Virus record (IMG/VR): IMGVR_UViG_3300009868_000001
Coordinates: 1 to 64,000 of that record
DNA: 64,000 nt
Strand: one strand, 5' to 3'
Source: a virus
Lineage: Duplodnaviria > Caudoviricetes
Shown: in pieces, positions 1 through 64,000 of the stretch
Layout of the letters: each line of letters opens with the position of its first letter
Position numbering within the stretch: position 1 is the first letter of the stretch
Position numbers and translations under genes: made by a program
The notes under the pieces: model-generated
What the model was told of the DNA's origin: nothing
Database searches by the model: none
What the model saw: only the letters and a program-made list of their open reading frames with translations

Positions 1-3000
1 CCTTGTTGAAACCTTGATGAATCGTTTGAAAGAAACTGAAAGCCAACTGTGTTTACTATTGAACCTCTTGATTGGGTATTTGAAACTACAGTCTTACTTT
101 CCTTGGAATAAAATTCCACCGAATTTATATCATAAAGAGGTATTAAGTTTGAAACTATATATGAATTGATGTAATCAGTAAGTGTAAGCTTGCCTAAGAA
201 ATCATTATTCACAGTTAAAATCGTATTCGTTGAATCGACAAATGTTGAGGTAAATGAAGATTGAACTCCTGCATTAAACAAATAGTCTCGAAGTATCTTT
301 TGAACATTAATTCGTCCAACTACCTCTGTGTTAGTTTCCTGCCATGCCAAATCTAAATTAGTCATGTCTATTGAATCGATGTCCTGGGTAACCTTTTGAG
401 AGTTGAAAATATTGATTTCAAGGTTTAATGGAAGGTTCATTACCTTAGCTAAGAAGTTTTGATCTTCTTCTATTCTTAAAGTCCCTGACACTGGATTCTT
501 AAAAAACCTATCAGAGTATTTCCAATGATAGCCCCAGTCCCAGTTAGATTGTAATAAAAACATATCATCACGACCTATTGGAACCTCTCCGATTAATGGA
601 TATTGCGGAAGATAACGGTCATCCTCTTCTAATAAGAGTATTCTGGTGTCTGCTACTTTTATATGATTGAAGTTTTTAATGTCAAATATATCAGGATCAT
701 TTAAGTTTAGCCTAACGTTTGCTAATGAAACTATTTGGGGATCCGGGGTTCCACTAAATGTTGCTTCAAATTCTTTCTTAAATGCAACTAGAGGTTTAAA
801 GATTGGTTCATATCCACCGTTATACCTAAAAATTGTTGCATTTGATTTAAGTTCGTTTCTGACAAATTGATAGCCAGCCAACTGAGGATTTAATTCAAGA
901 GATTGTTTCTTGAGTTTATTTCCAGCTGCAGTTGTTTTTGGTTTACTTGCAATAATTTGAAGATATTCAGGAGTTGAACTAGGGAAACTCTTTTTAACCA
1001 ATTCAACAGGTTCTTCAATCTCAACGTAAAACTCAGTGTCTGATGATTGAACTGCATTTCCGTTTGAATCAAGCTGCCATGTTTCGTATTCTATGACAGA
1101 CGACATATTATTAACAAATTCCTTAAACTTAGAAAATGACAATTTTCCGAAAAGTTGAGTGTAATAGTCCTTACCTCCCATTATCTGGAAAAATCTATAG
1201 ACTTTCCAAAGAGCCTGGTTAAACGCTGGGACAAAATATGAAAGGTCTAATGGAACTCCATAATACGGCCCACTCAAAGGTAAGCTAGGTTCACTTATTG
1301 CAAGGTTAGACAGTGAAGAGTTTGCATTGGTTGCAGAAACTGCATTATAGAACCTATCAGTTATCTGAATATCGTTTTTAACAATAGAATCTAGCATTGA
1401 ATCTGCAAAACTAAACACACCATTTCTAGCACTTAGGACGTATTCACTTCCAAAACATGACTGAGACAGCGTAGAGATCTGTGGACCTCTCATGTAAAGC
1501 AATGCATTAGTATCAACTGAACGGATTTCATCGTCCAACTGAGAAACCCATTTAGGAATGTTTGGGTTAGGAATACTCTTTATGAATATCCTGTTATTGT
1601 TTATGTAAACACCTGAAGTGCTAAAATCTATTTTACGAGTCAAAGTAATGTTAGAGAACGAATCTAACAGGGTATTGTATTTTTTATTCTTTGCATAATA
1701 CAAAAATGCATAGGAAAGATCACTCAATCCATTAGAGTTTACGTTCACTCTATAGTCTCCAAATATTCCATGAAAGAATGGAAGGAAGTTAAAGTAAGGA
1801 TTTACATCATAAAAATTATCTAGAGTCACCTTAGAGTCGTCAGTTGCACCTGGAGACATCGGCTCTATTGATAAGAAATTAGGAGCAATGGTAGTATCAC
1901 CATAATTCGAGCTCAATACTATGTCAATTAAAAGAAGGACAAACTTATAGTCCTTATGTTCAATAAATCTAAATCGTATTGGCTGAGTTGAATCAGAACA
2001 CATGTTTTCTGGTATCACCCTTAAAAGAGACGTGAACTTATAGTCTTTAAACCTGTCAGAATTTCTTACATAACTAGGTTTACCATCTATTTCTTGACCG
2101 AGATTCTGAGCAATCTCTTTAAATGAGATTCTAAATCCTTTAAATAGAGTTTCATAAAGACCTGTCGAACCTTCAATGTCGGTTATCGTGTATCTATGTT
2201 GAGTTCTAGCTACTTCTTTCTGTCCAAAAAATGGAGCATATGCAAAGTAATTTAAAAACTCATCCTTATCATTTAATAAATTAGACAAGTTTAATGGTTG
2301 GTCAAAATAAAAATAGTTCTTTTTAACCAAAGACTCATCGTTTAAATAATCAAACGCAGACTCAATATAGAACCATTCATGTGTAAACCGTGAAGGGTTT
2401 GCAGTAGGTTCGTTTTGGTTAGGCGCAAAATTGTCTTGACCAAACACAAATTCGGTGTTTAAACGATATGGATTGTCCCGAATGTCTAGGCTCTTTTCAT
2501 ATCCCCACTTACAGATGTATGGAATTATTTGACTCTTTATTGCAAAGTCTTTAGTGTTTACTTCATTTAAAATCTCATATTCAGAAAGGGCTGAGTCTAC
2601 ATATTTGTCCCTAAACTGATATTCAATTGACGTATTATCAGAAACTGCTGATTGCTTGTGAATAGTTGAAAACCCATTAAACCTTTTCAGCTCTTCGTTT
2701 TCATCCCATAGAGGCACGTCTAAGCGAATGTCTCCGTTTGTTGCCACATTATTTTTAATAACAATTGGATCTCCACTTGTAACAGTAAATGATTTAGTTC
2801 CTGTTCCTGATATAAGGTCACCAGTTTCATAAACAGTTCCGTCAATACTTATTGAACCTGTTCCAACTATTGTGTATGTAAAGTTTGTTAGGTCAAGACC
2901 ATTTACTCCCTCAGGAACATAGAAATCCTTATAAAGGTCCATCTCCTGAAATCTGGAATATGTGCTAGAATATGGATCGAAGTCAAAATCCATAAGGTCA

Positions 3001-5048
3001 AGGACCGATAGAACCCCTATCCTAAAATGGAATTGCCTACGGAACTGTGCAAGTGTATTTACAAGCTTAGGTTGAGCCTTTTCTTCTAAAAAGACTCCGA
3101 TCTTAAGGTCATAATTAGCAACAGCTAACTCAGCTTTTTTAAGGTCAGACAGGTCGTCTGATGTTATGAACTCAATTGCATGAGCAGTCTTAACAACATT
3201 TACCCAATTTTTATCAGTTTCAACTACTAGATCATATGAAGGCTCACCATCAATAATTGTTATGGTCGAATCTATTTTATTTTTATGACCTGAATCAACC
3301 ACTAAATGATAACCATAAGAGTCTCCTCCTATGAAGTTAAACTTATGATTTTCTAAATAGGTTTGGCTTTCATACCCGTTTATTTTAATGACATCCCATG
3401 TGTTTGAAACTAGAGATGAATATTCAAATGAAAATTGGAGGTCATGATTACCTGGTGAATTTATTTTCACCCAGAGACGATTCTTATATCCTAAACCAAT
3501 AAAAGGTTTGTATTTAACTGAATTTATACAGCCCAATAGAGCAGACGCAACCTGTTCAGTTGTTCCAAGGCAGTTAAAATAAAACGTGTCGCCTGTACCG
3601 GAATCTGAATGGTATGCATAAAAGTCTCCTGGATTATCAAGGTCAGGATCGTTATATCCTTCAACAGCTATGAATTCATCATATCGAAGTAAACCTGATT
3701 TTTTAGTTCCTCCTGGGTGATATAGTTTAACTGAATCACCGGTCCTAAAGTTTCCAAGAACCTCAATCTCAGCAAAACTTTGGCTTTTTCCAATAAACAA
3801 ATCAGCCGAATCTTCAATGAAAACTTCTCCTGGACCAAAAAAGCTTCCGATGTCAGTCTTAGTCGTGGTCAAAGTAAGTTTACCTGAATCTTGGTCTATG
3901 TATTCAAAGTTGTTAGGCTTTATAAGATGAAGGTTTTTATCTCTTCCTTGAACATATGAAAAGAAAATGTTTTTATCATCTGAAAAAGCAGATGAAATTG
4001 AAGTTATTCCTTTTTCAACGAACTTAAAATAAAACTCTAAACCATTAGGGTTGGTTTGAATAAATTTAATAGAGTCATCAGGCTGATACCTTGACCTAAA
4101 CTTAGGATTGTTTAACTTAAGGTCATAGTGAGTCTCAGTGTCCATTATAGCAGAATCAAGTTCTACTAGGTTACAATAAAAACCAAAATACCTGTTAAAT
4201 TCATAGTCTTCTGCAGTTTCATCATTAAATAGAAACTCAAGATTTAAGATATTTGGAAATATGATATTGTTCCTCTGGTATCCAAGCGTAATATACTCTT
4301 CGAATGCACGAATAGGGTTCCCTTCTTGAAAAAATGAATATAAGTTTTCGCTTGCTGCTGCAAAGGCTCCGGTTTTATATGCTATTCCATTGTAATAGCT
4401 AAATCTATCCCTTTCAAAGTTAATATCAAGAGGATTGTCCGGAAACAGGGGGTTGTTTATGATATTTCTAATGTATGAGCCAATCTTAGACTCGCCTGAA
4501 AGATCAAAAACCTTTACAATCTCTGCCTTTTTTAAGAGGTCGGTCATGTATTGGTTCTTATCGATTGGATAAGAATCCTTAGATTGAGTAACGTTTCCTT
4601 CCATTGGGCCCTTTATCTTAAAGATAACGAAGACATCTGGAAGGTCACTTTTAAGATAGATTGGAGCAAAAAAACTAAATTTTTCGTCGTATCTTCTATC
4701 TACTAAATATTTGACTCCACTAAAATAGTTAGAAAAATCATATTGGTCTTCAAACCTCAATGAAGTTGAATTGGTGTTTACTTTTTCCCTAAGGTCGTAC
4801 ACTATTTCTGGCGGAGTAGAGCCGTCATTAAAGAATGAGAATAAATTGGTCTCATGTCCTTTAGTAACGTCCACTGGGACACGTTTATACATATCCTTGG
4901 CCAGTTCATCGTTTGCATCGATTGAATTTAACCAAACGTTTTGGTCGCTGTCTACCGTAACTTTTACGTTACCTGTAAGCTTAGGGTTGCTCCTGACTAA
5001 CTGAAAGCTAGAGGAACCTGGAAGAATTTTCTTGTATTCTACACTCAC
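1..5048 (-). CDS. Very large putative virion structural (tail/baseplate) protein, >1680 aa, runs off the window start
   Basis: Missing from the ORF track, consistent with no stop inside the window. Manual translation from GTG at 5048 gives MSVEYKKILPGSSSFQLVRSNPKLTGNVKVTVDSDQNVWLNSID...; no other long ORF occupies 1-5048; co-oriented with the upstream structural block. Confidence 0.7.
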   Translation of the reverse strand, partial: MSVEYKKILPGSSSFQLVRSNPKLTGNVKVTVDSDQNVWLNSIDANDELAKDMYKRVPVDVTKGHETNLFSFFNDGSTPPEIVYDLREKVNTNSTSLRFEDQYDFSNYFSGVKYLVDRRYDEKFSFFAPIYLKSDLPDVFVIFKIKGPMEGNVTQSKDSYPIDKNQYMTDLLKKAEIVKVFDLSGESKIGSYIRNIINNPLFPDNPLDINFERDRFSYYNGIAYKTGAFAAASENLYSFFQEGNPIRAFEEYITLGYQRNNIIFPNILNLEFLFNDETAEDYEFNRYFGFYCNLVELDSAIMDTETHYDLKLNNPKFRSRYQPDDSIKFIQTNPNGLEFYFKFVEKGITSISSAFSDDKNIFFSYVQGRDKNLHLIKPNNFEYIDQDSGKLTLTTTKTDIGSFFGPGEVFIEDSADLFIGKSQSFAEIEVLGNFRTGDSVKLYHPGGTKKSGLLRYDEFIAVEGYNDPDLDNPGDFYAYHSDSGTGDTFYFNCLGTTEQVASALLGCINSVKYKPFIGLGYKNRLWVKINSPGNHDLQFSFEYSSLVSNTWDVIKINGYESQTYLENHKFNFIGGDSYGYHLVVDSGHKNKIDSTITIIDGEPSYDLVVETDKNWVNVVKTAHAIEFITSDDLSDLKKAELAVANYDLKIGVFLEEKAQPKLVNTLAQFRRQFHFRIGVLSVLDLMDFDFDPYSSTYSRFQEMDLYKDFYVPEGVNGLDLTNFTYTIVGTGSISIDGTVYETGDLISGTGTKSFTVTSGDPIVIKNNVATNGDIRLDVPLWDENEELKRFNGFSTIHKQSAVSDNTSIEYQFRDKYVDSALSEYEILNEVNTKDFAIKSQIIPYICKWGYEKSLDIRDNPYRLNTEFVFGQDNFAPNQNEPTANPSRFTHEWFYIESAFDYLNDESLVKKNYFYFDQPLNLSNLLNDKDEFLNYFAYAPFFGQKEVARTQHRYTITDIEGSTGLYETLFKGFRISFKEIAQNLGQEIDGKPSYVRNSDRFKDYKFTSLLRVIPENMCSDSTQPIRFRFIEHKDYKFVLLLIDIVLSSNYGDTTIAPNFLSIEPMSPGATDDSKVTLDNFYDVNPYFNFLPFFHGIFGDYRVNVNSNGLSDLSYAFLYYAKNKKYNTLLDSFSNITLTRKIDFSTSGVYINNNRIFIKSIPNPNIPKWVSQLDDEIRSVDTNALLYMRGPQISTLSQSCFGSEYVLSARNGVFSFADSMLDSIVKNDIQITDRFYNAVSATNANSSLSNLAISEPSLPLSGPYYGVPLDLSYFVPAFNQALWKVYRFFQIMGGKDYYTQLFGKLSFSKFKEFVNNMSSVIEYETWQLDSNGNAVQSSDTEFYVEIEEPVELVKKSFPSSTPEYLQIIASKPKTTAAGNKLKKQSLELNPQLAGYQFVRNELKSNATIFRYNGGYEPIFKPLVAFKKEFEATFSGTPDPQIVSLANVRLNLNDPDIFDIKNFNHIKVADTRILLLEEDDRYLPQYPLIGEVPIGRDDMFLLQSNWDWGYHWKYSDRFFKNPVSGTLRIEEDQNFLAKVMNLPLNLEINIFNSQKVTQDIDSIDMTNLDLAWQETNTEVVGRINVQKILRDYLFNAGVQSSFTSTFVDSTNTILTVNNDFLGKLTLTDYINSYIVSNLIPLYDINSVEFYSKESKTVVSNTQSRGSIVNTVGFQFLSNDSSRFQQ

Positions 5049-56268: not shown

Positions 56269-56919
56269 TTGGAGCTCAAAAATTTCATCCAGGCCCACCC
56301 AAATGAAAAATTTCTCATTCTTGGAAACGGAAAGTCAATTTTAAATCTTCCTAAAAAGATTGACTTAATTACCATTGGTGTAAATGACATAGAACGCCAT
56401 ATGATTCCTACTTATTTAGTTTTAACAGACAATCCTAATAGATTTGGTGTTGTAAATTCCAAACGAAGAAACCAAGTTCAATCGACTAAATCTAAGTTTG
56501 TCTTTGTTTTCGATAAATGGTGGACTTTTAAAAGTGATGACGGAAAAAACTTAGACTATAAAAGAATAGTCATGAAATTAGGTAAAAAGGGAAAACTTGA
56601 TAACCTAGATTCAAAGGACACTGTTGACTATTCAATAACGTCTCCGTATGTCGCTGCTATACTTGCATATAAAATGGGAGCCAAAGAAATTGGAATAATC
56701 GGAGTTGATTTTACGGACGGTCATTTTTATAGACCAGAGGATGGTGTTCACCCTATAGTTAAATCGTCTCGGTTAGAAGAGGTTGAGTGTCATTTCAAGG
56801 CATTAACTGAAGAGCTTGAACGTCGTGGTATTAAGGTTTGGAACTTAAGTGAAGAATCTATCTTAAAGCCAATTCCAAAAAAGAGCCTAAGTGAGTTTTT
56901 ATGTTACCAGACAACGTGA
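56269..56919 (+). CDS. Maf/DUF115-like (CstII/sialyltransferase-related fold) putative nonulosonate transferase
   Basis: ILGNGKS, TIGVN, PTYLVLTD, MGAKEIGIIGVDF, VWNLS; directly upstream of the NeuA-like gene. Confidence 0.65.
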   Translation: MELKNFIQAHPNEKFLILGNGKSILNLPKKIDLITIGVNDIERHMIPTYLVLTDNPNRFGVVNSKRRNQVQSTKSKFVFVFDKWWTFKSDDGKNLDYKRIVMKLGKKGKLDNLDSKDTVDYSITSPYVAAILAYKMGAKEIGIIGVDFTDGHFYRPEDGVHPIVKSSRLEEVECHFKALTEELERRGIKVWNLSEESILKPIPKKSLSEFLCYQTT

Positions 56920-57527
56920 AGATAGTTATACCTGCCAGAAGAGGTTCTAAGGGGTTTCCGTTTAAAAACAGAAAGCTTCTTCAATATACTCTTAATTCAA
57001 TTCCTAAAAAATATAGGAAAATGGTCTGGATAACGACGGATGACGAAAAAATTATAGATAAATGTAGAGGTGATTATAATGTAGTTGTTAGACCTAAATC
57101 ATTAGCACAGGATAATACTCCAATATGGAACTCCATGTTTCACCTCATTATTTCCAATAAGTCCTTTAAAAAGGACGACATTATCATAATGTTGTATTTA
57201 ACTTACCCAGATAGAAAATGGAAGTTAGTATTAAAGGCATTAAAGTTCTTTAAGAAACATAAAGCTAAAAGTCTTTTATGTAAAATTAAGGTTGATTCTC
57301 ATCCATATTTAATGATGTATGAAAACGGAATCAACGGCCGAATGATTGTATCTCACAATAAGTTTAGAAGACAAGACTATCCTGAAGTCTTTGAGCTCAG
57401 TCATTGTGTTTGCATCTTTAAAGTTAGTGAAATCCAAAACCTAGGTAGAAACCTATGGAATAATAATACAGTATACTTTCCAATTAAAAGACATCGGGAC
57501 GTAGACTATAAAAATCAATATAAGTAG
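56901..57527 (+). CDS. neuA: Acylneuraminate cytidylyltransferase (CMP-nonulosonate synthetase)
   Basis: IVIPARRGSKGFPFKN, ITTDD, RPKSLAQD, LTYPDR, RRQD, DVD. Confidence 0.85.
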   Translation: MLPDNVKIVIPARRGSKGFPFKNRKLLQYTLNSIPKKYRKMVWITTDDEKIIDKCRGDYNVVVRPKSLAQDNTPIWNSMFHLIISNKSFKKDDIIIMLYLTYPDRKWKLVLKALKFFKKHKAKSLLCKIKVDSHPYLMMYENGINGRMIVSHNKFRRQDYPEVFELSHCVCIFKVSEIQNLGRNLWNNNTVYFPIKRHRDVDYKNQYK

Positions 57528-57532
57528 TAAAA

Positions 57533-59077
57533 ATGAAAAGTGCGTTATTTACATACATTACAGAGTATTTGGTAAATGAGGTTGAACATGCAATAGATTC
57601 ATTTATGGTCAATCATGATGATTTTAATGGTAACATAATCATCCTGTATTCTAAATATGAACCGATAAGTGAAAAGACTCAACTTAAATTTAAGGAAAAA
57701 TATAACCCAATATTCAAATTAGTTTCAAGTGCTGGCCTTGATGTATTGTATTCAAGACTCAGAGGAGAGTTTAATCAAAACCCTTCAATCTGTCAATATC
57801 TTTTAGTTGAAGCATTAGGCGCCGTAAGTTATGACAAAATATATGCGATTTCGCCTAAAGTAACGATGACAGGCAAGTCAGACCAATATGTAAAAGCAGG
57901 TGACATAATTTTCTTTAAAAAGGATATGACTTATCGTGAAGATAAGAAGTTAATAGTTAGACTGGGACCAACTCTAGTCAATCCTAACTTTTTTATAGTT
58001 AACAAGCCGGCAATGGGGCAAAATTATCCAGGTTTTTTATATAAGAACCTTGTGTTTAATCGAGACCTAAGTACTGCAATGACTTATTTTCTCGTAAACT
58101 ATCTTTCAACCAAATGTCAGGTAAAAATTCTTGAAAATTCAGCTTTTCCAATAGTCGAAAATTTTTCAAATCAGGCATTTCCGATATTCGTTGCAAATCA
58201 ATCGAGGATGATAGGGATAGACTTTACGTTTATCAATAATGTAAATCAAAAAAATTATCTAAAGGTCCTGGATTTTTACAAAAAGAACCGGGAATTTGTT
58301 GATTCGTCTATCAAAGATAGACTTTTTAGGTATTCACCAGACAATTCTTTTGAAAATATTGACGTAGATATTGCAACTGAAATACCAGATGACTTGAAAT
58401 ACAATGTTCAGGGCCAAAATGAAAAATTATGTTTAATTGTCTCATTTAGAAACAGAGACCAACACCTCGAGGTATTTCTTCCATACATAACTGCGTACCT
58501 TGAAAATGTCAATAATATTCATGACTATCAAATAGTTATAGTCGAACAGGCCGACAATAAGCCATTCAATCGTGCTAAACTATTTAACATAGGTGTTAAT
58601 GAATGTCCTGGTTTCGATTACTATTGTTTTCATGACATTGACCTAATTCCAATCAATGTAGACTATTCATATTCACCTGATCCAACACACTTAGCTGTTT
58701 ATGTAGAACAGTTCGGTTATGAGATTCCATATGCTGAATATTGGGGAGGAGTCATTATTGTTCCGACTGATTCATTTAAAGCAGTTAACGGATTTAGTAA
58801 TGAATATTGGGGATGGGGAGCAGAGGATGATGATTTTTACCATCGTTTGTTAAATGGTAAATGTAATCCTGTTCGACGACCTGGCGGTAAATACAGGTCT
58901 CTTTCACATGTTAGTAATATGGATCCAGTCATACGTGAGAAAAACTGGAAACAGTTTTTGGAAGCTAAAAATTCTGGATTTAATAAGCAAATAAGCAGCG
59001 GTCTTTCAAACCTAGAGTATAAACTTCTTAGTGTTTCAGGATACGGCAAAATAAAATTTATCAAGGCTGAATTATGA
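57533..59077 (+). CDS. GT7 beta-1,4-galactosyltransferase-like domain fused to a divergent N-terminal domain
   Basis: FRNRDQHL, FNRAKLFNIG, FHDIDL, YWGGV, VNGFSNEYWGWGAEDDD. Confidence 0.88.
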   Translation: MKSALFTYITEYLVNEVEHAIDSFMVNHDDFNGNIIILYSKYEPISEKTQLKFKEKYNPIFKLVSSAGLDVLYSRLRGEFNQNPSICQYLLVEALGAVSYDKIYAISPKVTMTGKSDQYVKAGDIIFFKKDMTYREDKKLIVRLGPTLVNPNFFIVNKPAMGQNYPGFLYKNLVFNRDLSTAMTYFLVNYLSTKCQVKILENSAFPIVENFSNQAFPIFVANQSRMIGIDFTFINNVNQKNYLKVLDFYKKNREFVDSSIKDRLFRYSPDNSFENIDVDIATEIPDDLKYNVQGQNEKLCLIVSFRNRDQHLEVFLPYITAYLENVNNIHDYQIVIVEQADNKPFNRAKLFNIGVNECPGFDYYCFHDIDLIPINVDYSYSPDPTHLAVYVEQFGYEIPYAEYWGGVIIVPTDSFKAVNGFSNEYWGWGAEDDDFYHRLLNGKCNPVRRPGGKYRSLSHVSNMDPVIREKNWKQFLEAKNSGFNKQISSGLSNLEYKLLSVSGYGKIKFIKAEL

Positions 59078-59691
59078 AAATTGATTTGACTAAAATTCCT
59101 GCTTTTTGGTTTGGTGGCATTAAACCAAATCGGGCAAAAAGAATCACAAATATGTTTAAGCGGACAGGTATCAATGCTTCCAAGCTTGAAACATTTATAG
59201 ATTCCGACCCGGTTATGGGTTGTGCACTCAGTATGAAAAACGCCCTTAAGGTCGTCAATCAAATAGACGAACCATGTTTAGTATTTGAGGATGACGCAGA
59301 AACTACTGCCCATGTTAGGTCTATGGTTATTGAAGTTCCTGATGATGCAGATGCAGTTTATCTTTGTTTAAGTAAATATGGAGTAATGAAGGATTGGAAA
59401 CTTCAACACCGAGATAAAATGGCTTCAGAAAAGGATTTTTCCTTTGTTAGGACCAGAGATCCTAGATTTGTTAAGTTAAACAATATGGTAACGTTGACTG
59501 CTGTTGTTTACATAACTGAGAGGTATAAGAAACATGCATTAAAAGAAATTGATTCAGTGATTCCTACCAAACTTCACTGTGATGTTCCTATTGCATTGGC
59601 CTTACGTGATTTTAATGTATATGCTATGACCAAACCTCTTTTTTATCAAGAGTGCCCATTGTCTAAAAAAACAACCAATTTTGTGCTATGA
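59074..59691 (+). CDS. GT25-like glycosyltransferase
   Basis: GCALS, CLVFEDDA, LTAVVYI, HCDV, LFYQ. Confidence 0.65.
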   Translation: MKIDLTKIPAFWFGGIKPNRAKRITNMFKRTGINASKLETFIDSDPVMGCALSMKNALKVVNQIDEPCLVFEDDAETTAHVRSMVIEVPDDADAVYLCLSKYGVMKDWKLQHRDKMASEKDFSFVRTRDPRFVKLNNMVTLTAVVYITERYKKHALKEIDSVIPTKLHCDVPIALALRDFNVYAMTKPLFYQECPLSKKTTNFVL

Positions 59692-60512
59692 TAGCAAGAA
59701 CTTTTTTCTCTAGAAAATGGAACGATAATGGGGAACCTTGGTTTCAAGTTGACCTTCCGTTTAAGTGTGATATTTACATGAATTATATAGACCATGAAAC
59801 CCTTGCTAAAACCCCATCAGGCGTTAAAAAGGTTTTCATGGACATAAACGAACCTACGTTTTACGGTCAGTCTGTTGAGACTTTATTGGAAAACGCTGAT
59901 AAATTTAATGCTATAATAACTAAACACCAAAGTGTTATAAATTCGATTCCTTGGGCAACAACTGATATTTGGGCATCAAGCTACATTATTCCCAACAAAA
60001 ATATAGACAAGGATTTCTCCGTTTCCTTTCTTTGCACGAATAAAAAAGGTTACCCTGGATACGAAGTCAGACACCAGCTTTGGAACAGACAGGACGAAAT
60101 AACAGTCCCAAAAAGATTTTGGAGTTCAAAATATCTACCAGTAGACCCCAATCGCATTTTACCTGGAACCGGTGAAAATACCGATAAGATTGTTTTATTT
60201 AAGTCTATGTTTTCAATCTGTCCTGAAAATTCAAGTGAAGAGAACTACCTTACTGAAAAGATTATGGATTGTTTTTTAACGATGACTGTTCCAATCTATC
60301 GTGGGTGCACGAATTTTGAAAAATATTTTAATCCAAACGGTGTCATCTTTTTTAATGACATTGACGATTTAATTCAAAAGATTAATAATTTAACTCCTTA
60401 TGAATATTTCAGTAGACTTCCAGCTATGCAGGAAAATTTCAACAAAGCTATGAAAATGATGAATCCCGGTGAAAGAGTTAGGGATCTCATTTTACAAAAA
60501 ATAAAACAATAA
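59688..60512 (+). CDS. GT10 alpha-1,3-fucosyltransferase-like
   Basis: FSICPENSSEENYLTEKIMDCFLTMTVPIYRG alpha-3 FucT motif. Confidence 0.85.
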   Translation: MIARTFFSRKWNDNGEPWFQVDLPFKCDIYMNYIDHETLAKTPSGVKKVFMDINEPTFYGQSVETLLENADKFNAIITKHQSVINSIPWATTDIWASSYIIPNKNIDKDFSVSFLCTNKKGYPGYEVRHQLWNRQDEITVPKRFWSSKYLPVDPNRILPGTGENTDKIVLFKSMFSICPENSSEENYLTEKIMDCFLTMTVPIYRGCTNFEKYFNPNGVIFFNDIDDLIQKINNLTPYEYFSRLPAMQENFNKAMKMMNPGERVRDLILQKIKQ

Positions 60513-60513
60513 C

Positions 60514-61269
60514 GTGGATTTAATAGTCGATAATAAAAACAAGGTCCTAGTGTTTTGGAATGCTAAGTGTGGGTGTTCTTTTGTAAAAGCATTATTTTTA
60601 CAATCTCGTGAAATACCTTTACCTGAGTTTGAGCAGTTACATGAAATCATAGGATATGGGTATAGTCCAAACCAGGAATTTTCGTTTATTGATACAAACG
60701 ATTTAGAAAGATATTCTTCATATAAAAAGGTCCTTATCGTTAGGGACCCATATAAAAGATTGGTGAGCGGATTCTTAGAAAAGATCCCCAAATGGATTAA
60801 GGCTGGTCACTTTAATCAATCATGTTACCTGTCATTTAACGATTTTATTTCTAAAATATCAGAGATAAACGGAGTAGTTTCATGTGGCTCTTCTTCTTTT
60901 TATGACATTAAACACTTCATTCCCCAGTTTTCTGAAAAATATGAAATATTTGAAAAGATGGGGTGGACTTTTGACTATGTGATAGACGTTTCTCAGCTTT
61001 CTAAAAATATAGATGTGTTTGAGAACTTATTCAGTTCTAAACTCGATGAAGTCGCTGCATTTGAAATTGGTAGCTCACACCAAGTCAAATATTCCGATTC
61101 AATTAGAGAAGGTTCAGCAGACGTTCCACTAGAAGAATGGATGAACACTAACGTTTTCCCAAACTACAAAAGCTTTTATATGAACGAACAGGTCATGCAG
61201 TCCTTTAATCATCTCTATTCAAATGACCTACTAAAATTAAAAGAACTTGGTTTTGAATATTCATTATGA
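60514..61269 (+). CDS. Carbohydrate sulfotransferase (Sulfotransfer_2-like)
   Basis: 5'-PSB-like NAKCGCS, 3'-PB VRDPYKRLVSGF, HFIPQ, YSNDL. Confidence 0.8.
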   Translation: MDLIVDNKNKVLVFWNAKCGCSFVKALFLQSREIPLPEFEQLHEIIGYGYSPNQEFSFIDTNDLERYSSYKKVLIVRDPYKRLVSGFLEKIPKWIKAGHFNQSCYLSFNDFISKISEINGVVSCGSSSFYDIKHFIPQFSEKYEIFEKMGWTFDYVIDVSQLSKNIDVFENLFSSKLDEVAAFEIGSSHQVKYSDSIREGSADVPLEEWMNTNVFPNYKSFYMNEQVMQSFNHLYSNDLLKLKELGFEYSL

Positions 61270-62084
61270 AATTAGGAGTATCATATAGTGTGTTTGATGG
61301 CGTTGAATTACTTGAATCATCAATAAAACAGATCAGAAAGGACGTTGATTTTATAGATGTTCAGTATCAGGAGAAATCATGGTTCGGTAAGCCTGCAAAG
61401 CCTATTGATTTATGTATTCTTAATGAACTTAAGAAAAAAGGTCTCATTGATTCTCTGACTCTATTTAAGAACTTTTATGAGCTTAAGCCCATAAAGATGC
61501 ACGTCATGCAGTCTAAAATATTTGAGACCGCTAAGAGAAATGCCGGGTTGGACTCATGTCTAAAGAAGGGTTGTACTCATTTTATGAATATGGACGTTGA
61601 CGAATTTTATGACACGGAACAGTTTAGAAAAGCAAAATCAATAATTGAAGAAAAGGACCTTGAAACGACTGCTGTTTCGTATTTGAATTACGTAACACCG
61701 ACTTTACATAGAGGTTATTCTCCTCATTTGGTTCCATTCATTCATAAAATAACGCCTGCGGCCAGACATACTAAATTTCAACCGTATTTTCCAGGAGTAG
61801 ATCCTACTCGTGGTCTTGGAGATGAGTCTTATAAGAGATGGCGTATATTTCCTAAGGAGGATATCATAATGCATCATATGGAAATGGTCAGAAGGGATCT
61901 TGCATCGAAATACGAGTCTACTTCAAGGTTTTATTTAGAACGTAATAGAATTAATGAACTGGTTCAACTTGTTGAAGAGTCTAAATCAAAAAACTCCATA
62001 AATTTTAAAGGTATAATATATCCTGGAGCAAAGGAAGATTCTATTTTGACTCCTGTTGAAAATAAATTTGGGATTAAAATATGA
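61266..62084 (+). CDS. GT-A fold glycosyltransferase (GT2-like)
   Basis: ETAKRNAGL, MDVDEFY DxD motif, MHHM. Confidence 0.65.
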   Translation: MKLGVSYSVFDGVELLESSIKQIRKDVDFIDVQYQEKSWFGKPAKPIDLCILNELKKKGLIDSLTLFKNFYELKPIKMHVMQSKIFETAKRNAGLDSCLKKGCTHFMNMDVDEFYDTEQFRKAKSIIEEKDLETTAVSYLNYVTPTLHRGYSPHLVPFIHKITPAARHTKFQPYFPGVDPTRGLGDESYKRWRIFPKEDIIMHHMEMVRRDLASKYESTSRFYLERNRINELVQLVEESKSKNSINFKGIIYPGAKEDSILTPVENKFGIKI

Positions 62085-62911
62085 CCCAGATAATTGCAGA
62101 GATAGGAATCAATCATAATGGAAGTCTTGAGATTACTAAAAGACTGATAGATGAAGCAGTTGAAGCAGGTGCTGATTATGTAAAGTTTCAAAAAAGAGAC
62201 CCAGATATCTGCGTTCCTGATGAAATGAAAAATGTCTTACGTGACACTCCATGGGGCAGAATAACTTACCTTGAATATAAGAAGAATTTAGAATTTTCAT
62301 ATTTAGAATATGAAGAGATTGACAAATACTGTAAACTTAAAGGGATTAAATGGTTTCTTTCAGTTTGGGACCTTAACTCTGCTGAATTTGCTCGGGAAAT
62401 CGATCACACTATTGTAAAGATTCCATCAGCTCTTGCTCTAGACCAGCCCCTGTTAGAATATTGTAGAAAACATTTTGAGACTCTCATTATATCTGTCGGT
62501 ATGTGTGAAGGCTATCAAATTCAAAGCATAATAGATAGAATTAAGCCGGATGTGATTATGCACACAAATTCATCATATCCAAGTCCAATTGAAGAACTAA
62601 ACCTAAACCACATTAAATGGCTTGAAAAGGTGTCTAATGGGTCGGGTCATAGATTTGAAATTGGTTATTCTGGACATGAATTTGGATTGGTGACGACATT
62701 TGCTGCAGTTGCAATGGGAGCGACTTGGATCGAAAGACATATCACATTAGACAGGACGATGTGGGGTTCTGACCAAGAGTCTTCAGTCGAACCGTTGGGC
62801 TTTAAAAAACTTGTCAAGGGTATTAGAGATATAGAAAAATCGCTTGGAGAATATGGACCACGTAAGGTCACTCCTTCTGAGCATCAAAAAATAAAATCAT
62901 TAAGAAAATGA
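62081..62911 (+). CDS. neuB: N-acetylneuraminate/nonulosonate synthase, short form without SAF domain
   Basis: IIAEIGINHNG, GADYVKFQKR, KIPSA, HTNSSYP, GYSGHE, IERHITLDR, GSDQ. Confidence 0.92.
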   Translation: MTQIIAEIGINHNGSLEITKRLIDEAVEAGADYVKFQKRDPDICVPDEMKNVLRDTPWGRITYLEYKKNLEFSYLEYEEIDKYCKLKGIKWFLSVWDLNSAEFAREIDHTIVKIPSALALDQPLLEYCRKHFETLIISVGMCEGYQIQSIIDRIKPDVIMHTNSSYPSPIEELNLNHIKWLEKVSNGSGHRFEIGYSGHEFGLVTTFAAVAMGATWIERHITLDRTMWGSDQESSVEPLGFKKLVKGIRDIEKSLGEYGPRKVTPSEHQKIKSLRK

Positions 62912-63876
62912 AAAGAGCATTAGTATGTGGTGCAGGTGGATTCATCGGAAGCCATCTTGTAAAAAGACTTAAGAATGAAGGATTCTATGTAATTGGCGCC
63001 GATTTAAAGATGCCGGAGTTTAGTAAAACAGCAGCAGACAAGTTTATAATAATAGACCTTAGAGAACCGGGTCTTTGTGATGCTCTATTTAGAGAAGGAA
63101 AGTTTGATCATGTGTATCAGCTTGCTGCCGATATGGGCGGAGCAGGTTATATTTTTACTGGAGAACATGATGCGGATGTGATGCACAACTCTTCACAAAT
63201 TAATCTTAATATTGCTAAACTTTGTGTAAAGTTTAACGTTGAACGTGTATTTTATTCTTCATCTGCTTGTATGTATCCTGCATACAATCAAGAGGACCCT
63301 AATAATCCTAACTGTAAAGAAGATTCAGCATATCCTGCAAACCCAGACTCAGAATACGGTTGGGAAAAGCTTTTCAGTGAAAGGTTATATCTAAGCTTTC
63401 ATAGAAACTATGGCTTAAATGTTAGGATAGCCAGGTTCCATAACATATTTGGACCTGAAGGAACCTGGACAGGCGGAAAAGAAAAGGCTCCAGCTGCCAT
63501 ATGTAGAAAGGTTGCTTCAGCTGAAACTGGAACGTCAATCGATATCTGGGGAGATGGAGAACAGACCCGATCGTTTCTTTATATTGATGAATGTGTTGAA
63601 GGAATCAGAAAATTAATGGAATCTGATTTTGTTGGTCCGGTCAATATTGGTTCAGATGAAATGGTCACTATAAACGACCTTGCAAACAGGACAATTACAA
63701 TATCAGGAAAAACCCTTTCCTTAAACCATATTGAAGGTCCTCTTGGAGTAAGAGGTAGGAATTCTGATAATAATTTAATTCAGGAAAAATTGGGATGGTC
63801 ACCTAATAAACCATTAAATGATGGTCTTGCTTCCACTTATGCTTGGATTGACGAACAAGTTAAAAAGACTAAGTAA
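62908..63876 (+). CDS. GDP-mannose 3,5-epimerase-like extended SDR
   Basis: GAGGFIG, AADMGGAGYI, YSSSACMYP, YGWEK, RFHNIFGPEGTWTGGKEKAPAAICRK, GVRGRNSDN. Confidence 0.88.
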   Translation: MKRALVCGAGGFIGSHLVKRLKNEGFYVIGADLKMPEFSKTAADKFIIIDLREPGLCDALFREGKFDHVYQLAADMGGAGYIFTGEHDADVMHNSSQINLNIAKLCVKFNVERVFYSSSACMYPAYNQEDPNNPNCKEDSAYPANPDSEYGWEKLFSERLYLSFHRNYGLNVRIARFHNIFGPEGTWTGGKEKAPAAICRKVASAETGTSIDIWGDGEQTRSFLYIDECVEGIRKLMESDFVGPVNIGSDEMVTINDLANRTITISGKTLSLNHIEGPLGVRGRNSDNNLIQEKLGWSPNKPLNDGLASTYAWIDEQVKKTK

Positions 63877-63877
63877 T

Positions 63878-64000
63878 GTGAGTAAGACATATTTAATAGA
63901 CATAGACCAGACCATTTCTAAGACAGACGGTCTGGCTTATGAAAGGGCAGAACCAATACTAAACAACATCAACACTGTAAATCGATTATTTGATGAAGGT
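63878..64000 (+). CDS. HAD-family phosphatase, N-terminal part (truncated by the window end)
   Basis: Manual translation from GTG 63878: MSKTYLIDIDQTISKTDGLAYERAEPILNNINTVNRLFDEG; DxDxT motif I. Confidence 0.7.
   Translation, partial: MSKTYLIDIDQTISKTDGLAYERAEPILNNINTVNRLFDEG

Follow-up and report, generated by a model that had tools for sequence, protein, structure and literature searches.

The 64,000-nucleotide stretch analysed here (the window; positions 1 to 64,000 of IMG/VR record IMGVR_UViG_3300009868_000001) is the first 64 kb of a single 109,066-bp viral contig. It carries a glycan cluster with a NeuB-family synthase without a SAF domain, a very small phosphatase of the HAD superfamily and a GDP-mannose 3,5-epimerase (GME). 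Gene context makes it most likely that the cluster produces an activated sialic-acid-like sugar by way of a phosphorylated intermediate, probably ketodeoxynonulosonic acid (KDN) from mannose-6-phosphate (Man-6-P), and that it turns GDP-mannose into GDP-L-galactose. Taken as a whole, this explanation by two donor modules falls slightly short of an even chance. The family identities, catalytic residues and gene associations on which it is built are firm. An original prediction, made from the window alone, had also drawn both donors from mannose metabolism; its observations were confirmed, and its interpretation is partly supported.

The contig, which bears baseplate, portal, helicase and polymerase genes, is a fragment of the genome of a huge tailed phage. 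Its portal protein is closest to records of uncultured 'huge phages' (41% identity), with Lak phages at about 33%. The 11 co-directional genes of the cluster run from position 56269 of the window to position 64823 of the contig, between a DnaJ gene on one side and minus-strand baseplate genes on the other. Their order is a 216-amino-acid (aa) protein, a 208-aa CTP_transf_3 protein, a GT7-type protein, a 205-aa protein, a GT10-type protein, a Sulfotransfer_2 protein, a 272-aa protein, the NeuB, the epimerase, the small HAD and a 207-aa protein. Since only one further gene (contig 64200-64823) lies 3' of the phosphatase before the baseplate genes begin, neuC, gmd and fcl are not directly downstream. 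The original prediction had named these genes, if found just downstream, as evidence against itself; the region was inspected and holds none of them, more than half of the genome being unseen. Family searches over the whole contig (109,066 bp; CheckV completeness 41%) found no Epimerase_2 (NeuC/LegG), DegT, Polysacc_synt_2, NTP_transferase/ManC or mannose-6-phosphate isomerase (PMI) family, and no PseB/LegB-type, gmd or fcl gene, the GME being the only short-chain dehydrogenase/reductase (SDR) found. What had been reported for the window, the absence of neuC, Pse/Leg and Gmd/Fcl genes, holds for these 109 kb as well.

The SAF-less NeuB and its phosphatase partner

The NeuB (276 aa, 62081..62911, plus strand), proposed here as a nonulosonate-9-phosphate synthase, matches PF03102 over residues 22-257 (E = 1.5e-61). 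As originally described, it has no SAF domain: the Pfam scan gave no SAF match, the chain stopping 19 residues past the NeuB domain, and the same scan does detect SAF in NeuBs of 344-345 aa from other genomes. By alignment, E25, K53, Q55, K129, S132 and S154 of Neisseria meningitidis NeuB correspond to E7, K35, Q37, K113, S116 and S138 of the window enzyme, and Y186, S213, H215, E234, H236 and D247 to Y166, S197, H199, E218, H220 and D231. The metal-binding His and the phosphoenolpyruvate (PEP) and substrate residues are all kept, while the acidic residue at N. meningitidis position 134 is replaced, aligning to L118. The roles of these residues are in part taken from PMC8208679, where R314 is described as conserved across the SAF-bearing NeuB groups. 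SAF-less NeuBs of about 270 aa with about 60% identity to that of the window are abundant in marine metagenomes. In a quick IQ-TREE tree, the deep branches of which are unresolved, the window NeuB falls within an all-viral clade (n = 12, SH-aLRT 97).

The phosphatase, called mini-HAD below, is 106 aa long and is proposed to be a nonulosonate-9-phosphate phosphatase. Its gene runs on the plus strand from a likely GTG start at 63878 to contig position 64198, with the first 41 codons in the window. The gene order is NeuB, GME, phosphatase, so that both the DxDxT phosphatase and the GME-type epimerase originally placed after NeuB are borne out. Motif I reads D-I-D-Q-T; ten family members share D8, D10, T12, T48 and D92-D93 without exception and the Lys of motif III almost without exception, which accounts for HAD motifs I-IV. 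The best match among solved structures is a 'capsule biosynthesis protein' (PDB 9iqw, 2.4e-09), and the match to TIGR01689 is weak (28 bits, cut-off 162). Like the EcbF/BcbF capsule biosynthesis phosphatases of TIGR01689 and the 9iqw protein, with which it shares all four motifs, the mini-HAD is a small HAD that lacks a cap; a substrate for either was not found in the literature that could be searched.

The link between NeuB and phosphatase was followed in 74 sampled NeuB loci (41 from GTDB genomes and 33 from IMG/VR), the neighbours of which were annotated with profiles built in this analysis. The mini-HAD profile was built from short members only, as fusion proteins had pulled in the CMP-synthetase family. 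A HAD phosphatase, either KdsC-type or mini-HAD, lies near the SAF-less NeuB in about 51 of the 74 loci. In 35 loci the HAD is of KdsC type. Either it is a protein of its own (about 162 aa) or it makes up the C-terminal half of a fusion with a CMP-synthetase (about 390 aa); on the model for KDN-9-phosphate (KDN-9-P) phosphatase it reaches 60-134 bits, and on that for the KdsC subfamily up to 139 bits. In 16 loci, all viral but one, a mini-HAD homologue of about 100 aa is found instead. Next to NeuB itself, the mini-HAD was seen in 17 loci. Within the clade of the window NeuB, 11 of the 12 members have a mini-HAD no more than 6 kb away, and in one locus (L060:8850-10004) the CTP_transf_3 protein encoded directly upstream of the SAF-less NeuB carries a mini-HAD as its C-terminal domain. 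An independent sample of 80 viral loci, picked by mini-HAD alone from at least 411 viral relatives, gave a CTP_transf_3 gene within 8 kb in 23, abutting the HAD in about 10. NeuB is present in 13 of these loci, and 10 of the 12 that are readable are SAF-less with the sequence KFQKR. As this NeuB clade keeps the phosphatase at its side, its substrate is probably a sugar-6-phosphate, as it is in the KDN pathway and in the animal one. The association suggests that the mini-HAD occupies the place of KdsC in the pathways to KDN and to the 8-carbon acid Kdo, just ahead of CMP activation. This placement is the main support for a phosphorylated NeuB substrate, and we regard the phosphorylated route as having a good probability.

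A pair of residues points in the same direction. NeuB homologues (n = 83) were aligned and sorted by neighbour gene; the window NeuB has K38-R39 directly after the KxQ motif. At these two positions, mini-HAD-linked NeuBs have Lys in 14 of 15 and Arg in 15 of 15; the Lys-Arg pair is present in 37 of 37 KdsC-linked SAF-less NeuBs and in all three SAF-bearing NeuBs next to true BT1713-type phosphatases (BT1714-type orthologues). It is missing from the four neuC-linked NeuBs, which have Thr-His (three) or Lys-Phe (one), and N. meningitidis NeuB also has Thr-His. In this alignment, the signature tracks the phosphatase, whether or not SAF is present. For the human enzyme, PMC8208679 assigns recognition of the phosphate to this loop and describes the loop as favouring the use of a phosphorylated substrate.

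The missing SAF domain itself, which the original prediction used as a pointer to KDN, does not serve as one. The NCBIfam equivalog model for KDN-9-P phosphatase was run on 401 Bacteroidota genomes, with the Bacteroides thetaiotaomicron control scoring over the cut-off, and seven matches exceeded that cut-off. Of the four best (245-254 bits), three adjoin a NeuB of 344-345 aa with SAF and the fourth is cut by the edge of its locus. Since NeuBs beside true BT1713-type phosphatases retain the domain, the rule that a NeuB without SAF makes KDN was rejected. These BT1714-type orthologues are only 31-36% identical to the window NeuB.

Three observations concern the surroundings of these genes. At loci L132, L145, L148, L153, L158, L162, L181, L182, L200 and L207, a CTP_transf_3 gene abuts or overlaps the mini-HAD gene, mostly with no NeuB within 8 kb; such loci may represent a Kdo-type pair with a non-KdsC phosphatase. 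In sister phages, a Cys-rich open reading frame (ORF) of 100 aa, 71-88% identical between phages, stands between NeuB and mini-HAD (L048:3888-4190, L051:1796-2095, L056:10876-11175, L057:11914-12216 and L075:9494-9799); it is absent from the window contig, where the GME is found instead. Four gammaproteobacterial loci (L025, L027, L028 and L030) carry two nonulosonate modules a few kb apart, one with neuC, a SAF-bearing NeuB and a CMP-synthetase, the other with a SAF-less NeuB and a CMP-synthetase-KdsC fusion, which implies two different nonulosonates.

Identity of the nonulosonate

In the proposed pathway, the SAF-less NeuB would join PEP to a host hexose-6-phosphate, most simply Man-6-P, to give a nonulosonate-9-phosphate (KDN-9-P). 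The mini-HAD would strip the phosphate, the 208-aa cytidylyltransferase would form the CMP-sugar, and the Cst-II/Maf-like protein at the end of the cluster, perhaps together with the product of the first gene, would transfer the nonulosonate from it. We infer the substrates of the NeuB and the HAD, and the sugar on the CMP donor, from gene context; that this sugar is KDN is not quite an even bet. The KDN-9-P route with a HAD phosphatase, as originally predicted, stands in so far as the phosphatase is a conserved partner of NeuB. It does not stand in the type of phosphatase, which is not KdsC-type, and Man-6-P cannot be told from N-acetylmannosamine-6-phosphate (ManNAc-6-P) by sequence.

The module would work like the KDN pathway and the animal pathway to N-acetylneuraminic acid (Neu5Ac) through its 9-phosphate, and it lies outside both enzyme sets, because its synthase is SAF-less and in a clade of its own and its phosphatase belongs to another HAD family. 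The KDN pathways of B. thetaiotaomicron (BT1714/BT1713) and Prymnesium parvum (PMC6200933) likewise combine a NeuB-family synthase, a HAD phosphatase and CMP activation without NeuC. The BT1714-type orthologues, which have Lys-Arg after KxQ in common with the window NeuB, are 344-345 aa long with SAF and are paired with a KdsC-type phosphatase, whereas the window has a 276-aa, SAF-less synthase and an unrelated mini-HAD of 106 aa. The SAF-less NeuBs of environmental bacteria and of contigs of giant-virus size share with it the lack of SAF, the KFQKR and SGH sequences and an adjoining phosphatase and CMP-synthetase. The window NeuB differs from these KdsC-paired enzymes in forming a separate, strongly supported clade, in its residues at positions 54, 58-59, 64, 66 and 228 and in the family of its phosphatase.

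The neighbourhoods of related genes are consistent with a precursor taken from mannose metabolism, as is the lack of amino-sugar genes (NeuC, DegT and PseB-type) on the 41%-complete contig. Among 140 same-strand neighbours of KdsC-linked SAF-less NeuBs, most of them glycosyltransferases and MptE-like proteins, Epimerase_2 occurs twice, and DegT is not among the 25 most frequent families. Nowhere in a complete 293-kb relative (G404, NeuB 62% identical) or in a 98%-complete one (G405) is there an Epimerase_2. The mini-HAD of G404 adjoins the SAF-less NeuB and forms one protein with a cupin (L047:10817-11530); that cupin shows 28% identity to the mannose-6-phosphate isomerase of phage S-SCSM1 (itself matching PF01050 with 84 bits) and 33% to a further PF01050-positive cupin. 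NeuBs without SAF are also described in Streptomyces (PMC8208679), the walls of which contain Kdn polymers (PMC11481543).

Several points weigh against this proposal. The mini-HAD matches neither KdsC nor NF058599, on which BT1713-type orthologues score 243-254 bits, and the KDN-9-P synthase orthologues of characterised type have both SAF and a KdsC-type phosphatase, neither of which accompanies the window enzyme. Relative to the KdsC-linked clades, the window clade has W228 for Lys, Y66 for His and L64 for Gly, pocket-region differences from which its substrate may differ too. Most of the 80 loci sampled from the at least 411 viral mini-HAD relatives have no NeuB nearby. The L047 cupin itself falls below the PF01050 model, so that its reading as a PMI is half supported: it resembles PF01050-positive cupins but fails their model. 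The host could supply ManNAc-6-P or GDP-fucose, and, at a completeness of 41%, a gene absent from the contig may still exist in the phage. Finally, L046, the NeuB of which is 59% identical to that of the window, has SDR, GNAT, DegT, a DegT-like fragment, Epimerase_2, CMP-synthetase, NeuB and mini-HAD in a row, a gene set that looks legionaminic-like and typical of 5,7-diamino nonulosonates, and PglD-like acetyltransferases and DegT-like fragments occur in L056, which belongs to the phage lineage of the window.

These last two loci favour the view that the NeuB makes a legionaminic- or pseudaminic-like acid (a 5,7-diamino nonulosonate) or some other non-phosphorylated sugar from precursors encoded in the missing 59% of the genome or by the host, the mini-HAD having another job. 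The best solved-structure match of the window NeuB, a pseudaminic acid synthase, agrees with it, as do the many mini-HADs without a NeuB nearby and the viral neuABC clusters with pse/pgl genes on record (10.1101/655167). Even so, 9-deoxy sugars cannot hold a 9-phosphate, yet a HAD accompanies NeuB in nearly the whole clade and is fused to a CMP-synthetase in L060. The known LegI and PseI enzymes, moreover, need the SAF arginine, which is absent from the window NeuB. The set expected beside such a synthase (4,6-dehydratase, DegT, N-acetyltransferase and hydrolysing 2-epimerase), present in L046, is not found on the 41%-complete contig, which has no DegT, NeuC or PseB, and complete G404 lacks Epimerase_2. 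We consider the diamino alternative unlikely.

Neu5Ac made by an animal-like route is rather improbable. Here the NeuB would use host ManNAc-6-P (e.g. from NanE or NanK) to form Neu5Ac-9-P, which the mini-HAD would dephosphorylate. The phosphatase association and the Lys-Arg signature fit this route equally well, but no gene for making ManNAc-6-P is found in the cluster or among the neighbours of related loci, and the relative with a PMI-like cupin fusion speaks for mannose. Bacteria have ManNAc-6-P as an intermediate of catabolism, and it is found mainly in those that scavenge sialic acid. It must be added in favour of the Neu5Ac route that the human enzyme takes both Man-6-P and ManNAc-6-P (Table 2 of PMC6200933).

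That the NeuB instead joins PEP to another sugar phosphate (e.g. a pentose-5-phosphate), giving an 8-carbon, Kdo-like acid phosphate for the HAD and the cytidylyltransferase, is highly improbable: the many mini-HAD genes that abut CTP_transf_3 with no NeuB nearby are what a Kdo-type pair would give, and the pocket residues of the window clade are unlike those of the KdsC-linked clades, but we know of no NeuB-family enzyme that makes Kdo-8-phosphate. Arabinose-5-phosphate is rejected by the Prymnesium enzyme (PMC6200933).

The GME and the donor of the GT10-type transferase

The GME (322 aa, 62908..63876, plus strand) matches PDB 2c59 over residues 5-322 (E = 1.6e-101). Its match to the Arabidopsis GME structures is full-length, with 343 bits, against 88 bits at most for other SDR structures; GDP-fucose synthases score 70-108 bits, and the score on the GDP-fucose synthase model is 108 against a cut-off of 500. 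It keeps C121, Y150, K154 and K193 together with the NAD motif GAGGFIG from residue 8. The four residues correspond to Cys145, Tyr174, Lys178 and Lys217 of the Arabidopsis enzyme, reportedly catalytic in the 2c59 work. All catalytic residues are thus shared with Arabidopsis GME, and the full-length match and the catalytic set together make this gene a genuine GME, as had been predicted. Since all four catalytic residues are kept, GDP-L-galactose/L-gulose would be the expected product.

GME-type genes with 57-63% identity to this one are common in cultured T4-like cyanophages, and in cyanophage S-SCSM1 one of them, ORF123 (58% identical), is annotated as GME next to gmd and fcl (PMC9602691), so a phage GME is in itself not new. 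A bacterial GME is also known from Methylacidiphilum, according to its citation in PMC9602691. The setting differs: the S-SCSM1 gene follows gmd and fcl, whereas that of the window lies between NeuB and phosphatase in a nonulosonate cluster without gmd or fcl.

The candidate user of the GME product is the GT10-type transferase (glycosyltransferase family 10; 274 aa, 59688..60512, plus strand), which scores 23.9 bits on Pfam Glyco_transf_10, exactly at the cut-off. It has the family motif ENS-x5-Y-x-TEK at 180-191. Both the motif and the C-terminal GT10 match in Pfam are shared with the Helicobacter pylori FucT-type enzymes, from which the window protein differs in its shortness, its score at the cut-off and its partner, which is GME and not gmd/fcl. 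Homologues with 28-42% identity were found in 34 viral loci, 16 of which have gmd, and 13 gmd and fcl, within 10 kb. Only one of these loci (L106) has a GME; 65% identical to that of the window, it lies directly upstream of the GT10 homologue, with neither gmd nor fcl in the 10 kb around it. L-galactose is fucose with a 6-hydroxyl. A GME where gmd and fcl usually sit, in two lineages, would fit a GT10 that takes L-galactose, and we infer that the GME product has its likeliest consumer in this transferase, whose relatives as a rule take GDP-fucose.

The originally predicted L-galactosyltransferase activity is accordingly favoured by the replacement of gmd/fcl by GME beside the GT10, and it is held back by the nature of that link, which is adjacency in two lineages in a cluster with other transferases. 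The case of S-SCSM1 also speaks against it, since a GME beside gmd and fcl means that GME and fucose synthesis can coexist. It is quite conceivable, at somewhat less than even chances, that the GT10 is an ordinary fucosyltransferase drawing on host GDP-fucose, and that the GME product goes to the 205-aa, 272-aa or GT7-like protein or serves another purpose. The canonical motif, the relatives mostly beside gmd/fcl, the fucosyltransferases that S-SCSM1 carries together with GME, gmd and fcl, and the presence of at least four other candidate transferases in the cluster agree with this. Against a fucosyltransferase stand the absence of gmd and fcl over 109 kb and the gene arrangement at L106. Fucosyltransferases are known to take GDP-L-galactose in fucose-deficient plants, a further point against the fucose reading.

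Other genes of the cluster and significance

The first gene of the cluster (56269..56919, plus strand) encodes the 216-aa protein, which has no clear family, with no Pfam match at 0.001 and a weak MptE-like match (E = 0.056). Its N-terminal sequence 'ILGNGKS' resembles the CMP-sugar site of Cst-II/MptE-like transferases, and its homologue in L057 adjoins a CMP-synthetase. It is followed by the 208-aa CMP-nonulosonate (or CMP-ulosonate) synthetase (56901..57527, plus strand; Pfam CTP_transf_3, 23.1 bits), the match of which to NCBIfam PseF (8.3e-10) is far under the cut-off, and homologues of which (40-44% identity) directly precede NeuB in L046 and L047. The last gene, beyond the window (contig 64200-64823, plus strand), encodes the 207-aa Cst-II/Maf-like putative nonulosonate transferase. 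The best solved-structure matches of its model (pLDDT 81) are Cst-II sialyltransferase, a Pasteurella sialyltransferase and a Maf glycosyltransferase, and its N-terminal LGNGP resembles the CMP-sugar site of Cst-II. Together with the 272-aa protein described below, it fits a cluster that would both make and spend a CMP-nonulosonate. In viral NeuB loci L046-L075, two neighbouring proteins have matches (best E 1e-21) to the eukaryote-type sialyltransferases of GT29.

The 514-aa protein (57533..59077, plus strand) has a GT7 (beta-1,4-galactosyltransferase-type) C-terminal half. It matches both halves of the family (Glyco_transf_7C, 7.9e-23; Glyco_transf_7N, 4.5e-18), which is otherwise typical of animals, and its N-terminal part of about 290 aa is without a family. 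The 205-aa protein (59074..59691, plus strand) is a candidate GT25-like transferase (weak Glyco_transf_25 match, E = 0.0073), and in 11 loci its homologues lie upstream of a GT10 homologue, at a distance of about 3 kb. A 251-aa sulfotransferase (60514..61269, plus strand; Pfam Sulfotransfer_2, 3.6e-09) precedes the 272-aa protein (61266..62084, plus strand), a probable glycosyltransferase of GT-A fold with no Pfam match and the DxD motif 'DVD' at 110-112, the stop codon of which overlaps the start of NeuB. Of its homologues, those in L051 and L056 lie directly upstream of NeuB, and that in L075 lies upstream at about 3 kb. Its model is poor (pLDDT 50), with an N-terminal half that matches GT-A enzymes such as TarS and COLGALT1; a role as precursor enzyme was considered and set aside, since the poor model looks like a GT-A transferase.

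Elsewhere on the contig, a minus-strand ORF at 3-5048 of the window (more than 1,682 aa) is open-ended at the contig start, and no tRNA genes were found in the first 5 kb. Among the tail genes, a 956-aa protein on the minus strand (contig 73564-76434; L001:11564-14434) has a central cytidylyltransferase-like domain (PF01467, 7.8e-06).

Viral neuABC clusters were noted earlier (10.1101/655167). No account of a phosphatase-linked, SAF-less viral NeuB, of an assignment for the mini-HAD or of the pairing of GME with GT10 was found in the literature that could be searched. The full proposal is that huge phages and other large marine viruses encode a self-contained KDN pathway, in which a SAF-less NeuB would act on Man-6-P and a hitherto unassigned 100-aa mini-HAD family would replace the KdsC type as ulosonate-phosphate phosphatase, and that here CMP-KDN and GDP-L-galactose, the latter through a retargeted GT10, would build a KDN-capped, L-galactose-branched, sulfated glycan resembling sulfo-sialyl-Lewis. 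That all of this holds jointly is doubtful. Were it false, the cluster would add one case to the viral surface-glycan islands that cyanophages and lake viromes are already known to contain. If true, the phage would supply both rare donors from two ubiquitous mannose metabolites of the host, with no need of an amino-sugar pathway, and a very common family of small viral HADs would gain a function as an analogue of KdsC acting before CMP activation. The Lys-Arg pair after KxQ would become a testable signature of nonulosonate synthases that use phosphorylated sugars, and GME in place of gmd/fcl beside the same transferase family would be an example of donor swapping. Together, the signature and the donor-swap rule would allow a better annotation of the many genes that are labelled 'N-acetylneuraminate synthase' in environmental genomes and viromes.

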